IMG/VR virus record: IMGVR_UViG_2526164602_000034
DNA: 39,455 nt
From: a virus
Lineage: Duplodnaviria > Heunggongvirae > Uroviricota > Caudoviricetes
Reading direction: 5' to 3' (one strand)
This document shows positions 7,876 to 21,916 of the stretch, piece by piece. Numbering within the stretch: position 1 is the first letter of the stretch; each line of letters starts with the position of its first letter. The translations under genes and the position numbers were made by a program. The notes beneath the pieces were generated by a model. It saw only the letters and a list, made by a program, of their open reading frames with translations, was not told the DNA's origin and made no database searches.

Positions 7876-8435
7876 TAAATATTCTCCTCTTCGTGACTGT
7901 TTGCATATACGTAAATAAACGTCTGCCATGCAGGCTTATAACGGTTCAGAATACATTCCAGCGCACCGCCTTCATAAATACGCAGCGGCGTGAGAATATC
8001 ATCCAGCACATTCATATTCCGGTAGCCGGTTTCACTGTTAATCGTGACAATACTGACCCACTGTGAATCCGGTGATGGCTGAATATCTATTTCATAACCA
8101 AACTCTGCCGCAAACCGGATATAAAATTCACGGTTAAGAGAGGGTTTCATCCGGTATTTATTCCCGGCATAACGCTGACGCTCCTGAATGGTTGCGCCGG
8201 TCATATCACATTCCGGTAACCCCAGATAACGCTCCCAGTCTTCCAGCAGCAGACGGGATGAATCAGGAAAACGTTCTGCCAGCATCTGGTTACCGGTCCA
8301 GGAAACACGCTCCGTGGAATGACTGAGGCCCAGGCACAAAGCCGCAAGAACGGATGACGGCCGCTTATCCCATGCCAGCCCGTCAGGCAGCAACTGCAAC
8401 AGGGCGCGCTGATGCGGGGTCAGGGTTACAGCCAT
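7875..8435 (-). CDS. Baseplate/tail protein (Mu gp48-like)
   Basis: 186-aa ORF immediately upstream of the fibre gene and downstream of the J-like baseplate gene, translationally coupled; assigned by synteny. Confidence 0.55.
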   Translation of the reverse strand: MAVTLTPHQRALLQLLPDGLAWDKRPSSVLAALCLGLSHSTERVSWTGNQMLAERFPDSSRLLLEDWERYLGLPECDMTGATIQERQRYAGNKYRMKPSLNREFYIRFAAEFGYEIDIQPSPDSQWVSIVTINSETGYRNMNVLDDILTPLRIYEGGALECILNRYKPAWQTFIYVYANSHEEENI

Positions 8436-16052: not shown

Positions 16053-17555
16053 TCACAAAATGAAACGGATCTGTGCTGCCAGGAAGCGGAACTGGTTAAC
16101 CAGATCCGGCGTGCATAACACGTCAAGACGGTTTCGATCTGACGCATTACGCTCCACAAGCAGATTCTTTTTAAAGGTGTCCAGATTTTCGACCAGCCCG
16201 AGTTCCACCCACTCTTCACCCAGCGAAATTAACTGAAGCTTCATGATCTCCGGCGTCACGATATTCTGACCGGCACGAACGGGCGTCCCGTCATCAGCCA
16301 GTTTATGGCGCGGAAAACGTTGTGTGATAAAAGTACGCAGGGAATAACGCAGCCAGGAGAGGGTGTAGATGGTTTCCACATCCAGATAGCTGGGATCACT
16401 TTCGCCGTACACGTTCTGGCGATACATGGTCACCTGACGTTCGATCTGAACCACATCACCGGCAGCCACACTGACCGTGGCAATCCCTCCCCACAGCAGA
16501 CTGTTACGCTCTTCACGCGTCAGACGATCGGCCGGAGCCGGGGCCATGCGTGACGGAAGCGCCAGCGTCTGAAGCGGACGCGCAGGATCTGCTCCCAGAG
16601 AGGGTGCACAGGTGGCACAGACCGCCGCTGCCCAGAGGTAATCCGGTTCAGGGGCTTTGGGAATGGATGTGCAGGTCGCCAGAAAATCATTGCGTTTTGC
16701 CCCGAATGCCTGCACCTCACCAAACGTGCCGGTATGTGCCAGCCACAGCACGCCGTCAGACATTTTGGCCGGTCCCCAGCGTTTCAGAAGCTCATCACTG
16801 ATGATTTTCAGGTTTGCATCATCCTTATAGGGCATGACGACATAGTTGTACTGGCGATCGCCCATACCCGCCACGCTTCGGGTGATATCCGGGTTAGCCG
16901 CTTTTTGTTTCGGATAGGCTATAGCGACCTGTATTCCTTCCGGGGTTGCTTCCCCGTCGTGATAGTTCAGGCGCACATCATGAACGGAGCATTCACCGGT
17001 AAAGCGGGCGGTGATCCCCAGAGACCCTTTCAGACCTGCGCCATTATCACCACTTCCTGCACCAGAGGAGGCCGTGAAGGGCGCGTCAGGATCGGCATTG
17101 ATCAGCGCGGCCAGCTCGTCGGTCAGTTCTTTGCCTTTCTTACCTTTTGGTGCCGGGAGTGTATAACGCCGCCCCCCCACGCAGGCATAAACAATCCCGT
17201 CACGGGTGACCGTTCCGGTCAGATTCATGGCCGCAGCCGTTGCCTGTCCGGTGCCGTTCCCCTGAGCAATGGCATACAGTTCAGCATCAGGATTGATGGC
17301 GATAAATTCCGCCACCATCAGGGCAATCATGGAGCCGCGCCCCCAGAGTTCTGTTGCCTGAGACGCACGGGTGATCCTGACCGGAACATCCAGAACACCG
17401 GCACCGTCCACGGCATTCTCTTTCATTCTCGCCTGACCAAACAGCAGCACACACTGACGCTGTGCCGGAGTGCCGGTGACAGCCATGGAGTTATTAAACT
17501 CAACCTCAATCAGCGGTATACGGCGGTCATTACCGATCCCGTCAAAATTAATCAT
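16053..17555 (-). CDS. Contractile tail sheath protein
   Basis: 500-aa ORF preceding the tube gene; size and position as Mu L. Confidence 0.7.
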   Translation of the reverse strand: MINFDGIGNDRRIPLIEVEFNNSMAVTGTPAQRQCVLLFGQARMKENAVDGAGVLDVPVRITRASQATELWGRGSMIALMVAEFIAINPDAELYAIAQGNGTGQATAAAMNLTGTVTRDGIVYACVGGRRYTLPAPKGKKGKELTDELAALINADPDAPFTASSGAGSGDNGAGLKGSLGITARFTGECSVHDVRLNYHDGEATPEGIQVAIAYPKQKAANPDITRSVAGMGDRQYNYVVMPYKDDANLKIISDELLKRWGPAKMSDGVLWLAHTGTFGEVQAFGAKRNDFLATCTSIPKAPEPDYLWAAAVCATCAPSLGADPARPLQTLALPSRMAPAPADRLTREERNSLLWGGIATVSVAAGDVVQIERQVTMYRQNVYGESDPSYLDVETIYTLSWLRYSLRTFITQRFPRHKLADDGTPVRAGQNIVTPEIMKLQLISLGEEWVELGLVENLDTFKKNLLVERNASDRNRLDVLCTPDLVNQFRFLAAQIRFIL

Positions 17556-17797
17556 TGCGGTTTCTCCTTATCGGATGCCGGTTGGGCGACCGGTTTTTCT
17601 GTCGCAGTCGTTGCATCCGCAGATACAGCCGGAGCCTCTTCAGCGGCTTTTTCAGCCTGAATGACATCGCCGTCATCAAGACGCCGACACCAGAACGGCG
17701 TAAAGGGCTTTTCCTCCCCCTCCTGTGCCAGCGGGCGCATTGTGTCGGGATCACGAATCAGGCGTCCCGGCGCGGGTTTGATAAAGATGGTTTTCAT
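17552..17797 (-). CDS. Hypothetical head-tail region protein (Mu gp38 position)
   Basis: 81-aa ORF translationally coupled to the sheath gene; acidic C-terminal tail. Confidence 0.45.
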   Translation of the reverse strand: MKTIFIKPAPGRLIRDPDTMRPLAQEGEEKPFTPFWCRRLDDGDVIQAEKAAEEAPAVSADATTATEKPVAQPASDKEKPQ

Positions 17798-18358
17798 TTA
17801 CAGTTCCTCCGGCGGTTCGACCGCCGTTGTCGTGTTCCCCGGCAAATCAATATGTGCCTCAAACGGCGGCGTACCGGGCGGCTCCACAAAGGTTTCGTAA
17901 TGACGCAGGAAGTCGTCCAGCGAGCTGGTATCGGTCAGCGGTGCGATCATTTCCTCGCAGGAGAAATAAAGCGCATACATCACCGCACCACTGTCCGCCT
18001 GGGTTTCGGTGTAACCGTTGACCGCCTTTTCAAAGTAAAGCGGTGAGGTTTTTTCTGTTCTGAAGCCGTTAAGCACGGCAATCAGCCGGGCCACAATCTG
18101 ATACAGTCCGGGACGGCTGGCCTCACGCCCGTTGAGCATGTCGCCGATGACGTAGAACACCCAGTGACTGACCAGGCGACCACGGGTACGGCCTTCACCG
18201 GCACCCAGCCAGGCAACGTAGATCGCCGGGGCGTTAATCAGCATGGTGCGCAGTACGCTGTCGCTCCAGTCGCCGGGATGCGTGTCAACAGACACCAGTT
18301 CATTCCCGAAATACTCACGGATACGGGCGATGTATGCCTGTTCGGTTTCCGTAATCAT
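17798..18358 (-). CDS. Hypothetical virion protein (Mu gp37 position)
   Basis: 186-aa ORF in the conserved head-tail joining block; synteny only. Confidence 0.45.
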   Translation of the reverse strand: MITETEQAYIARIREYFGNELVSVDTHPGDWSDSVLRTMLINAPAIYVAWLGAGEGRTRGRLVSHWVFYVIGDMLNGREASRPGLYQIVARLIAVLNGFRTEKTSPLYFEKAVNGYTETQADSGAVMYALYFSCEEMIAPLTDTSSLDDFLRHYETFVEPPGTPPFEAHIDLPGNTTTAVEPPEEL

Positions 18359-18774
18359 ATGAAGCCCTTCTGGTTGCGCCCGAATACCGCTGCATCAGAC
18401 TGAACCTGTGGTAAATCCCCGGATTCAGGGGCCGCACCGTTCGTATCCACACCGACCGGCACATTGCCGTTCATGACATCTTTCAGCCAGGCCAGCGCTT
18501 CACGGTAACGGTCACGCGCCTGATCGGAGGCTCGCTGATCGCACAGGTAATAAAAGGCAATCGCGCAACAGTGCTGAACAAGAACGGCCGGAATAACCTC
18601 CAGCGGCAACGTGTAACGGGCGGACAGATAGCTGTCGATAAGGGCTGACGCATCTGTCAGCGCCCGGTTCAGCTTGCGCGTGTCCGGCTCATCCGAACGG
18701 GGCACAGCCAGTAACGGCCTGAGCAAATCCTCGCGGTAACGCGCCCGCATATCGGTTTCAGTGGCGTAATTCAT
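18355..18774 (-). CDS. Hypothetical head-tail connector-like protein (Mu gp36 position)
   Basis: 139-aa ORF, 4-nt overlap with the downstream gene; synteny only. Confidence 0.45.
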   Translation of the reverse strand: MNYATETDMRARYREDLLRPLLAVPRSDEPDTRKLNRALTDASALIDSYLSARYTLPLEVIPAVLVQHCCAIAFYYLCDQRASDQARDRYREALAWLKDVMNGNVPVGVDTNGAAPESGDLPQVQSDAAVFGRNQKGFI

Positions 18775-19151
18775 GCACGGGCCTGTTCCGCTTTGTTACC
18801 GGTCTTTTTCCGGGGAGCATCCTGTCCGGCTTCGGCTTCGGCTTCGGCTTCGGCTTCGGCTTCGGCTTCGGCTAAATCTGTACCGGCCACTGCATGAACC
18901 ACACCCGCCACGCTCCCCGCATCATCAGCAGACGTCTGTAGTATTCGCACAGTGAGGCATGGCTCCTCCTCCAGTCGGGCAAGCTGCTCCGGGGTGACCT
19001 CAACCTGCTGACGTCCACGCGTGAACAGGAACCCCGCACGACGAAACGCCGAACGACTGCAACGCACTTCTGCCAGCACCGTGACAGAATTGTCACCACT
19101 GACCTGAAGACCTGAATCATCTGTTGCTGCCACAGTGTGATGTTCATTCAT
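18771..19151 (-). CDS. Hypothetical protein with (Ala-Glu)n repeat, downstream of the major head gene
   Basis: 126-aa ORF containing AEAEAEAEAEAEAEA encoded by the hexanucleotide repeat; position as Mu gp35. Confidence 0.5.
   Translation of the reverse strand: MNEHHTVAATDDSGLQVSGDNSVTVLAEVRCSRSAFRRAGFLFTRGRQQVEVTPEQLARLEEEPCLTVRILQTSADDAGSVAGVVHAVAGTDLAEAEAEAEAEAEAEAGQDAPRKKTGNKAEQARA
18828..18872. repeat. Perfect hexanucleotide tandem repeat (GGCTTC), 7.5 units
   Basis: ggcttc repeated from 18828 to 18872 on the plus strand, in frame within the minus-strand ORF. Confidence 0.9.
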
Positions 19152-19194
19152 ATTTGCCCTCCGCAGGGGCCGGGCCGTAAGCCCGGCTCACCGT

Positions 19195-20142
19195 TTACAG
19201 ATAATCCGCGACAACCAGCTCCAGCTTACCCTTCATCTCGTTAGAGACGGTTGCGTTTCCGTCTGCGAACAGTTCACGCTCCAGCAGCTGCACCGCCTGT
19301 TTTTCCAGCGAGGTGGGGACAACAATATGGGTGGGTTTAATGCCGAGTTTGCGGCCACCGTCAGCGGTAAATTCGCGCATGGCTGACCAGCCGTGCCACA
19401 GTGCATCCAGCGTCAGCGGTGACTGCATCATGTAGGCCATCTGCCAGAAGCCGTAGCCCACATTGCGACGGGCGGATGCACCAAACACAAATTCGTTATC
19501 GGTGAATGCGCGACCTTCATCGACTTTGGTCTGGGCAACCAGTTCAGCCTTACGGCGATCCTGATAAATCAGCGGTTTTACCGCGCGGGAGCAGTCAAGC
19601 AGATACCAGGCCGGACCGCTGTAATCAGCCTGTGCGCCGACAGAGCCGGTTTTTGCCACAAACATATTGCTGACCATCTGCGCATCCCCGGAGCCATCCA
19701 CTTTGGGGTAAACCGGATGTTCGGTATCAAAGAAGTTCTGACCGTCATAGCAGGCCGCACTGATCCCGTCACGCAGGGCAGCAAAGACCAGCTCATCCGG
19801 TTGTACCGCCGCAGCGCGCCCCATCTCCTGGAACAACGGGGAATAAATACCGAGGTTGTCGTCTTCGAAGTCATCGCGGCTAATGGCGACAGTGCCTTCA
19901 AAAGTTTTGTTCACGATGGCATAGCCATAGGCTTTCATCTTCTCGATGACGCGGGAGCCGATCCACTCACGGAACTGCGGGAACTGCCCCAGCCAGCCGT
20001 AGGTGTTGGATTTCGATGTGGAGGGCACGGTCATCGCAATTTTTTTATACTGCGACGGGGCCATGGACATCCCGGCCTGAAAATCAGAACGGTAGCCCGT
20101 CATCAGGGCTGTGATCATCGCCGGTGTAATCGGGGTAGGCAT
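19195..20142 (-). CDS. Major head (capsid) subunit, Mu T-like
   Basis: 315-aa ORF directly downstream of the I protease/scaffold gene; size and order as Mu T. Confidence 0.75.
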   Translation of the reverse strand: MPTPITPAMITALMTGYRSDFQAGMSMAPSQYKKIAMTVPSTSKSNTYGWLGQFPQFREWIGSRVIEKMKAYGYAIVNKTFEGTVAISRDDFEDDNLGIYSPLFQEMGRAAAVQPDELVFAALRDGISAACYDGQNFFDTEHPVYPKVDGSGDAQMVSNMFVAKTGSVGAQADYSGPAWYLLDCSRAVKPLIYQDRRKAELVAQTKVDEGRAFTDNEFVFGASARRNVGYGFWQMAYMMQSPLTLDALWHGWSAMREFTADGGRKLGIKPTHIVVPTSLEKQAVQLLERELFADGNATVSNEMKGKLELVVADYL

Positions 20143-21266
20143 TATTGCATTTCCTCTTTCATTTTCAGGAACTCGGCTTCGGTTTTACCCAGCAGTTTGG
20201 CGGCCGCGATATCTTCAGCCGACAGCGCAGCGGTGGCAGTCTTTTTATCCGGCACGGTCACGGTGTCGGTCTGAAGAGAGGTCAGGGCCGCAACCGGCTG
20301 GCGGGCGTCAAGCTGTGCAGAAAGTGCCGCAACGCCAATCTGCCCGCCCAGTTGTTCCAGATAGCCGCGTTCGCTTTTGAAGATGCGCCCTTCGGATTCA
20401 GCCTTGTCCAGCACCTGCTCCAGCGTGGTGCTGCCGTGCTGCGCCGACAGCGCAACGTATTCGGTACGCAGGGCGTTATACGTTTCAACGGGCACGTATT
20501 TCGTCAGATCAATAATGCCGCCAGCCGGTGTGCCTTTTGCGGTTTCCAGCTCTGCCGACAGACTGGCGACCTGTGTTTTCAGGTTGTCGTGTGCATCCGC
20601 ACGGGTTTTGATCCCGGTGAGGGCAGACAGCGCCGCCGTGCCCAGCTCCGGCGTAAATTCGTCACCGTCAGCCACGGTCAGACCGAGCGCCGTCAGCAAC
20701 TGGCGTAATTGCTCATTCATGGAGGTATCCTTTAAAGGAGGGTTTAAGGCGTTATAAAGGTCATCCGCCGACAGTGCGGCGACAGGATTCATGCCGGTCA
20801 GACCGGGGTCACCGGTAATAGCCAGCATCCGAAGTTCGACAGGTTCGCCGGTGCTCTCGTCATAGCCAATCACCGGTGAAAACCAGGGGAATTCGTTATT
20901 ACGCAGATGTTCAAGGGCCGGAGGGTTCCACTTCGGGCGCACCTCGAAACCTCGCTCTTCACTGAAGCGAAAATTCTCCGGTGAGGCCATCACAAAACCG
21001 GCAGCCGGTGCCGGATGTCCCTCAATCAGGGTCTGGTGGTTGTAGTCAATTTTCACCGGCTGATTGAGCGCCACAACACGGGAGACCATGCGCTCAACGG
21101 CTGCATGGTTGATCAGCCAGCCTTCCGCCGGTTTTTCCGGGCGACCGTCACGGGCCTTTACCCGACCGGCTGGCATGATCTGACACCAGTCACCGTCCCC
21201 GTCTGCGGACAGGCTGATGGCATTCAGAATGGCATAAGCAAGTTTGGGCGTGTTTTTCGTCTTCAT
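20142..21266 (-). CDS. Head maturation protease / scaffold, Mu I-like
   Basis: 374-aa ORF with Ala/Leu-rich coiled C-terminal half (scaffold-like), upstream of the major head gene; ATG at 21266 confirmed. Confidence 0.7.
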   Translation of the reverse strand: MKTKNTPKLAYAILNAISLSADGDGDWCQIMPAGRVKARDGRPEKPAEGWLINHAAVERMVSRVVALNQPVKIDYNHQTLIEGHPAPAAGFVMASPENFRFSEERGFEVRPKWNPPALEHLRNNEFPWFSPVIGYDESTGEPVELRMLAITGDPGLTGMNPVAALSADDLYNALNPPLKDTSMNEQLRQLLTALGLTVADGDEFTPELGTAALSALTGIKTRADAHDNLKTQVASLSAELETAKGTPAGGIIDLTKYVPVETYNALRTEYVALSAQHGSTTLEQVLDKAESEGRIFKSERGYLEQLGGQIGVAALSAQLDARQPVAALTSLQTDTVTVPDKKTATAALSAEDIAAAKLLGKTEAEFLKMKEEMQ

Positions 21267-21442: not shown

Positions 21443-21916
21443 TTAAGGCGTTTCTGTGGCCTTTTTAAAGCGTTTTCTGATTTCGTCCATGATCTCCTGC
21501 TCTGCCACCTGATCAAAACCCATATACGGACGTGCACCAATGGCCGCCGGTCCAGGCGGCATACCTGGCAGGCCACCCCACTGATGAATGGCCGCATAAG
21601 GCTCATTTGATCCAATCAGCGCCCAGGTATCGCCATAATCCGTGGTCAGGCGTCGGGCCAGATCGCCGTTCAGCGTCAGGATTTTGCCGGGCATGTTTCC
21701 CTTACGGGTACGCCACTTGCGGTAAGGATCTGACCAGTCATGCCAGCGTTCGCCGTCCGGCTCTTTTTCCTGTTCAAACGCCATTTCTGACGATGACAGA
21801 AGGCTGGACGCCACACTGCGGGCCAGGTCTTTTCCACCACCCACAAACTGAAGCCGGGCAAAGACCCGCTGGAGACGCGCAACGTCCACCACCACGGCTG
21901 CATCGATGGATGACAT
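21443..21916 (-). CDS. Virion morphogenesis protein, Mu G-like
   Basis: 157-aa ORF between the F-like and I-like genes. Confidence 0.65.
   Translation of the reverse strand: MSSIDAAVVVDVARLQRVFARLQFVGGGKDLARSVASSLLSSSEMAFEQEKEPDGERWHDWSDPYRKWRTRKGNMPGKILTLNGDLARRLTTDYGDTWALIGSNEPYAAIHQWGGLPGMPPGPAAIGARPYMGFDQVAEQEIMDEIRKRFKKATETP

Follow-up and report, generated by a model that had tools for sequence, protein, structure and literature searches.

[quoted passage not shown]

Results

A hexanucleotide array within a Mu-like morphogenesis module

The stretch of phage DNA that was analysed, referred to here as the window, is 39,455 nt long and carries a Mu-like morphogenesis module on its minus strand. 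Within this module, a gene for a 126-aa protein lies between the genes for the major head protein and the gp36 adaptor, and it contains a tandem hexanucleotide array. In the order of transcription, the features are:

21443-21916, minus strand, gpG-like virion morphogenesis protein (Pfam, PHROGs)
20142-21266, minus strand, gpI protease/scaffold (Pfam, PHROGs)
19195-20142, minus strand, gpT major head protein (PF10124, E=6.6e-119)
19157-19162, minus strand, Shine-Dalgarno sequence GGAGGG of the 126-aa gene, 5 nt ahead of its ATG (read from the sequence, also visible in the folded RNA)
18771-19151, minus strand, 126-aa gene of the HI1506-related / Mu gp35 family (FluMu_N, phrog_3622, BLASTP to Mu gp35)
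18828-18872, minus strand, hexanucleotide array, (GGCTTC)7.5 on the plus strand and (GCCGAA)n on the coding strand
18355-18774, minus strand, gp36 adaptor, whose start overlaps the stop of the 126-aa gene as ATGA
17798-18358, minus strand, gp37 (Pfam, PHROGs)
17552-17797, minus strand, DUF2635 / gp38 (Pfam, PHROGs)
16053-17555, minus strand, tail sheath (Pfam, PHROGs)

Direct reading of the window gave seven GGCTTC units followed by GGC at 18828-18872, that is, 7.5 copies at 100% purity. Tandem Repeats Finder reported the same array at 18827-18873, with period 6, 7.8 copies, 100% matches and a score of 94; no second comparable array was found by this program in the 39.5-kb window, the next best score being 44. 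The longest period-6 self-match run at the array was 41 bases, compared to a mean of 7.4 and a maximum of 10 for period-6 runs in 200 shuffles of the window, and about 1e-20 runs of 41 bases would be expected by chance. Read in frame on the minus strand, the array encodes residues A94-A108 of the 126-aa protein, (Ala-Glu)7-Ala. In the translation, AGTDL precedes the tract AEAEAEAEAEAEAEA and GQDAPRKKTGNKAEQARA follows it, with the residues GQD directly after AEAEAEAEAEAEAEA. An earlier note, made from the DNA letters alone, had given the coordinates, unit, copy number, frame and encoded dipeptide of this repeat, and direct reading, Tandem Repeats Finder and translation agreed with it on every one of these points. 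It had also placed the repeat in a 126-aa gene just downstream of the major head gene, which holds with gpT at 19195-20142.

The prophage is Sp18-type and was inserted in ureC

The element is an Sp18-type Mu-like prophage of Shiga-toxin-producing E. coli (STEC). Window positions 957-38721 aligned with an Sp18-type Mu-like prophage at 97-99.9% identity, and the prophage starts at 957 (TGTATAGCGCGGCG...) with its mom/com end. Positions 1-956 matched urease genes (ureB/ureC) in STEC genomes at 100% identity. Since the ureB/ureC match ends at 956 and the prophage runs from 957, this prophage copy was inserted inside ureC. The 956/957 junction was present in 0 of 5426 complete E. coli genomes, among which no record covered at least 80% of window positions 1-1400. 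Prophage insertion sites differed between genomes. Annotations in LC727895.1 and LC727881.1 place this Mu-like phage within Stx1a- and Stx2c-converting prophages. The inserts in Stx prophages, together with the presence of up to 4 copies per genome, suggest that the element is actively transposing in STEC.

The array is the MLVA typing locus EHC-5

The S5 Table of Hirai et al. 2023 (PMC10062581) lists primers for the Japanese MLVA scheme for EHEC (Izumiya et al. 2010). Both primers of one locus in that table, EHC-5, have exact sites in the window:

18922-18944, minus strand, EHC-5 forward primer site ATACTACAGACGTCTGCTGATGA, 0 mismatches, single site
18788-18810, plus strand, EHC-5 reverse primer site CCGCTTTGTTACCGGTCTTTTTC, 0 mismatches, single site

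The two primers are convergent around the array and delimit an amplicon of 157 bp (18788-18944), and no chance match in the window is expected for either of them. The other primers of the 17-locus scheme did not match the window with up to two mismatches allowed. Because both EHC-5 primers match exactly and flank the array, the array is the published MLVA typing locus EHC-5, as defined by the primers tabulated in a later paper with Izumiya among its authors (PMC10062581). EHC-5 and the window locus are identical at the DNA level, with an allele of 7 units in the window and of 8 units in Sakai. The original paper by Izumiya et al. 2010 (Microbiol Immunol 54:569-577) is said to describe an MLVA scheme for EHEC O157/O26/O111 that includes EHC-5. 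The repeat is not new: EHC-5 is already part of routine EHEC fingerprinting and is used by Japanese public-health laboratories for O157/O26/O111.

EHC-5 shows variable copy number and frequent null alleles, which fit a variably present prophage. The location of the marker on a transposable prophage explains both the frequent null alleles and the genomes with multiple copies. Other VNTRs used for O157 MLVA, namely O157-3, O157-9, O157-17, O157-19, O157-25 and O157-37, likewise have a 6-bp unit, vary stepwise in copy number and serve outbreak typing. They are, however, other loci, and none of their primers matches the window. In contrast to most of these loci, which are rarely null in O157 data, EHC-5 is null in most strains, its carrier being a transposable Mu-like prophage. 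Literature searches for VNTRs of Sp18 in O157 and for HI1506 returned nothing, and a search for MLVA with Mu-like phage returned only Pseudomonas and Yersinia papers.

The repeat varies from 1 to 20 units

Of the 5426 complete E. coli genomes, 228 contained matches to a 501-nt query from the region of the gene, at 267 places in all. The carriers of the EHC-5 locus include O157:H7, O26, O103, O111, O121 and O145 strains, and some genomes have 2-4 copies of the locus. Match lengths ranged from 471 to 579 nt; their offsets from 501 were mostly multiples of 6, with other multiples of 3 in a few divergent backbones. Perfect GGCTTC units between the primer sites were counted directly in 15 related loci, two divergent loci that lack a primer site being left out. 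The alleles so counted had 1, 4, 6, 7, 8, 10, 11, 13, 14, 15, 18 and 20 units:

1 unit, ECP19-798
4 units, 7_56_38A
6 units, O26 RM10386
7 units, the window; the Mu-like insert in an Stx2c phage
8 units, Sakai
10 units, the Mu-like insert in an Stx1a phage
11 units, O103 RM8385
13 units, strain 121; 90-3040
14 units, strain 119
14 units plus two further GGCTTC units, with a GACTTC variant unit before each, OkiPb01692
15 units, strain 118
18 units, F7508
20 units, F1 E4

The flanks of the directly counted loci were identical or differed by only one or two bases, and no counted allele departs from the reading frame or loses the downstream tail. The earlier note had pointed to possible length polymorphism among lysogens, with unit changes that preserve the frame. 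Both expectations are borne out, the first by the range of 1 to 20 units counted directly and the second by all alleles counted in finished genomes, and the repeat number is clearly not constant across relatives. In 48 complete genomes with flanks that match the window at 100% identity, the inferred unit numbers were 7 (3 genomes), 12 (6), 13 (14), 14 (18), 15 (4), 16 (1), 18 (1) and 20 (1). The clustering of these identical-flank alleles at 12-15 units could reflect shared ancestry, many of them being from near-clonal cattle isolates, or a preferred length.

Three of the finished genomes are from cattle isolates 118, 119 and 121, which carry 15, 14 and 13 units, respectively. Each has a single copy of the locus, with the prophage at the same chromosomal site. 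Their flanks are 100% identical over 20,128 + 20,331 bp (40,459 bp), where the copy number is the sole difference, and the three isolates are a natural example of microevolution at EHC-5 and the best evidence for its speed. Published fragment sizing in O157, which is independent of sequencing, gave EHC-5 alleles of 0 (locus absent), 2, 3, 5, 6, 7 and 9-14. Published O157 17-locus profiles also include pairs that EHC-5 alone sets apart, such as CEC18128 (5) and CEC18136 (9).

Among database protein variants, interrupted tracts (AG, VE, SE, KA) were observed, and the minimal allele LAEAGQD is a common one, with 150 member sequences in P0057. One E. coli protein, the single-sequence cluster P0073, reads the repeat in another frame as KPKPKP (…AVWWFMQPAGTKPKPKPDEGYS…) and is in the normal frame again before the basic tail. 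This frame change could be due to two compensating indels or to sequencing errors; if real, it would mean that the sequence of the segment is barely constrained. Many database entries are labelled partial and end within or beside the repeat (P0056, P0062, P0064, P0068-P0072 and others). These indicate that short-read assemblies often break at the array, plausibly in genomes with several Mu-like copies of differing alleles.

The 126-aa protein is a truncated relative of Mu gp35 and HI1506

The 126-aa protein matched the Pfam family FluMu_N (PF17891) with 35.3 bits against a cut-off of 25.8, and phrog_3622 with E=2.4e-82. Its RefSeq name is 'HI1506-related protein', and the equivalent gene in Sakai, ECs_4975, is annotated within 'prophage Sp18, Mu-like phage'. 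BLASTP against Mu gp35 gave E=6e-12, with 56% identity over 36 residues of the N-domain. The sequence also matched PDB 2OUT, the NMR structure of HI1506 / FluMu gp35, with E=1.5e-4, and 2OUT was the top Foldseek hit in the PDB with a probability of 1.00. Foldseek returned no significant match in the PDB besides HI1506, and no solved virion protein with that fold. Only 14 relatives came up when the representatives were searched exhaustively with this one protein, and NCBIfam has no model for the 126-aa protein or Mu gp35. The parts of the protein on either side of the tract are:

18930-19088, minus strand, folded N-terminal FluMu_N domain, about aa 22-74 (AlphaFold2, 2OUT match)
18774-18827, minus strand, 18-aa basic C-terminal tail GQDAPRKKTGNKAEQARA, conserved among alleles (alignments)

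AlphaFold2 gave a poor model from the single sequence (pLDDT 52.7), and the model based on a 28-sequence alignment was good for the N-domain only, with pLDDT of 82-89 for aa 21-70. From residue 76 to the end, tract included, pLDDT in this second model was below 50, a level that is no proof of disorder, as Ala/Glu repeats could be helical. On these models, the tract probably lies in a disordered, length-tolerant segment.

Alignments with Mu gp35 and relatives, including those from Edwardsiella, Erwinia, Mixta, Citrobacter and Salmonella, revealed the plan of the family: the N-domain is followed by a linker, which varies greatly in both length and composition, and then by a conserved C-terminal domain of ~45 aa. 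This last domain is helical and has the motif IRxAxAxL..NPxHFT..GxPxVxAV..LG...AAL. In the alignments and allele sequences, the ~45-aa domain was not found in the window protein or in any Sp18-type allele; in its place, Sp18-type proteins have (Ala-Glu)n and a basic tail of 18-21 aa. Because the C-terminal domain is missing and the protein ends 18 aa past the repeat, its sequence identifies it as a truncated, N-domain-only relative of the Mu gp35/HI1506 family. The earlier note had called the tract an acidic linker. This description stands in so far as the tract is at the position of the interdomain linker of its homologues, but not in the sense of joining two domains, since only the 18-aa basic tail lies beyond it.

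The window protein shares with Mu gp35 and HI1506 a homologous N-domain followed by a variable unstructured segment. The gene of Mu gp35 also has the same position as the 126-aa gene, between the major head gene T (gp34) and the adaptor gp36. In contrast, Mu gp35 and HI1506 have the ~45-aa C-terminal domain that the window protein lacks, and Mu gp35 has no tandem repeat where the window protein has (Ala-Glu)n. The motif LAEAGG in the linker of Mu gp35 mirrors the minimal E. coli allele LAEAGQ(D), and this resemblance suggests that the array grew from a single Ala-Glu at the linker position. The NMR paper on HI1506 reportedly describes two domains with an unstructured linker of some 30 residues between them, and its authors are said to have suggested a nucleic-acid-binding role.

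Discussion

Slippage and neutrality as the favoured explanation

We consider it highly likely that the array is a coding VNTR in the Sp18-type prophage, the same as EHC-5, and that it represents a slippage-driven, neutral length polymorphism in an unstructured segment. Slipped-strand mispairing during replication at the pure hexanucleotide array would change the copy number, mostly in single-unit steps, and the single-unit differences among the otherwise identical single-copy lysogens 118, 119 and 121 make slippage likely. The 6-nt unit corresponds to two codons, so that each change would add or remove Ala-Glu dipeptides only, with no frameshift and no on/off switching. Between the FluMu_N domain and the short basic tail, the chain would have no fixed structure and would tolerate such changes, so that alleles of 1-20 units could persist across serogroups and insertion sites. 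We infer that slippage is the mechanism and that length is neutral. The repeat would then be a fast-evolving, essentially neutral length polymorphism that serves as an epidemiological marker and not as a switch.

Phase variation was rejected on the basis of the 6-nt unit and of the frame, which is kept in all finished-genome alleles, P0073 being the sole out-of-frame exception. The phase-variable contingency loci of Haemophilus and Neisseria are likewise hypermutable simple-sequence repeats in coding regions that change by slippage. They, however, switch expression on and off by a shift in frame or promoter spacing, whereas the EHC-5 unit is a multiple of 3 and gives no switching. A role for the repeat in DNA structure was also rejected, as the single-stranded repeat folds worse than its shuffles (z = +2.35). 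With no stable structure in the single-stranded repeat, no hairpin need be invoked.

The conserved N-domain and basic tail that surround the tract across alleles leave room for an adaptive reading, in which their spacing may be of importance. The (Ala-Glu)n tract would then be an acidic spacer that sets the reach or charge balance between the two, and slippage would give the phage population a useful heterogeneity, for example in DNA or capsid binding. This would accord with the binding of nucleic acids that has reportedly been proposed for the HI1506 family, and with arrays that are remarkably pure up to 20 units. Such purity is, however, expected from frequent slippage alone, and no particular length is required, since alleles of 1-20 units occur across several serogroups and many insertion sites. 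The tract also has no predicted structure, and point-interrupted alleles exist, with P0073 even reading KPKPKP in another frame. Adaptive tuning of length is thus unlikely.

Copy number might instead change mainly by homologous recombination or gene conversion between Mu-like copies, or by repeated acquisition of the phage, and not by slippage. The genomes with 2-4 copies of the locus would provide the partners for such exchange, and the prophage is mobile, with sites that vary and include Stx phages and, in the window, ureC. Isolates 118, 119 and 121, however, are single-copy lysogens with the prophage at the same site and 40.5 kb of identical flanks, yet they differ by single units. The arrays are also only 6-120 bp long, and at such lengths RecA-independent slippage dominates. 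We therefore regard recombination or acquisition as quite unlikely to be the main source of the variation. Even less credible, to the point of being negligible, is an artefact of sequencing or assembly at a low-complexity site. It is true that many partial database proteins end inside the repeat, where short-read assemblies break, but finished genomes yield clean alleles with whole unit numbers, and an ordinary read is long enough to cross an array of up to 120 bp. The same allele range is seen in routine MLVA by capillary fragment sizing, a method that does not depend on assembly.

Relevance for typing

The EHC-5 repeat already serves the tracing of outbreaks of enterohaemorrhagic E. coli, and the present analysis adds context rather than discovery. 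One addition concerns the protein, a truncated Mu gp35/HI1506 relative whose tract is at the position of the family's disordered linker. The other is a direct demonstration that near-clonal isolates can differ in the tract alone over 40 kb. That EHC-5 can change while the surrounding 40 kb stay the same is useful when single-locus differences in MLVA are interpreted.

Possible role in the virion

A 2025 cryo-EM study of Mu (PMC11915804) found no cement proteins on the capsid and did not resolve gp35. The same study considers that gp35 may be an additional connector-related protein (PMC11915804). A role of the 126-aa protein in capsid decoration is unsupported, given the Mu capsid without cement proteins (PMC11915804) and the lack of any solved virion component with the same fold. 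The decoration protein of JBD30 differs in being Soc-like and is not a FluMu_N protein. One could imagine a head- or connector-associated protein in which the slippage-prone acidic spacer is a rheostat, its length setting the distance and charge that separate the FluMu_N domain from the basic tail, an idea that we hold to be very improbable. If it were true, the particles of each lysogen lineage would have slightly different DNA retention or stability.

Other features of the prophage

On the minus strand at 19166-19188, between the gpT stop and the ribosome-binding site of the 126-aa gene, lies a GC-rich hairpin, GCCGGGC-UUACG-GCCCGGC, which is part of a longer stem (RNA dG -23.6 kcal/mol, z = -1.98) and lacks a T-run. 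Behind the abundant capsid gene, the hairpin may serve to stabilise the mRNA or as an attenuator. A gene of the recombinase family (Gin-like, 5343-5903) adjoins tail-fibre ORFs at 6297-6929 on the plus strand and 6964-7929 on the minus strand. By analogy, this region (5343-7929) resembles the invertible G segment with which Mu switches its host range.
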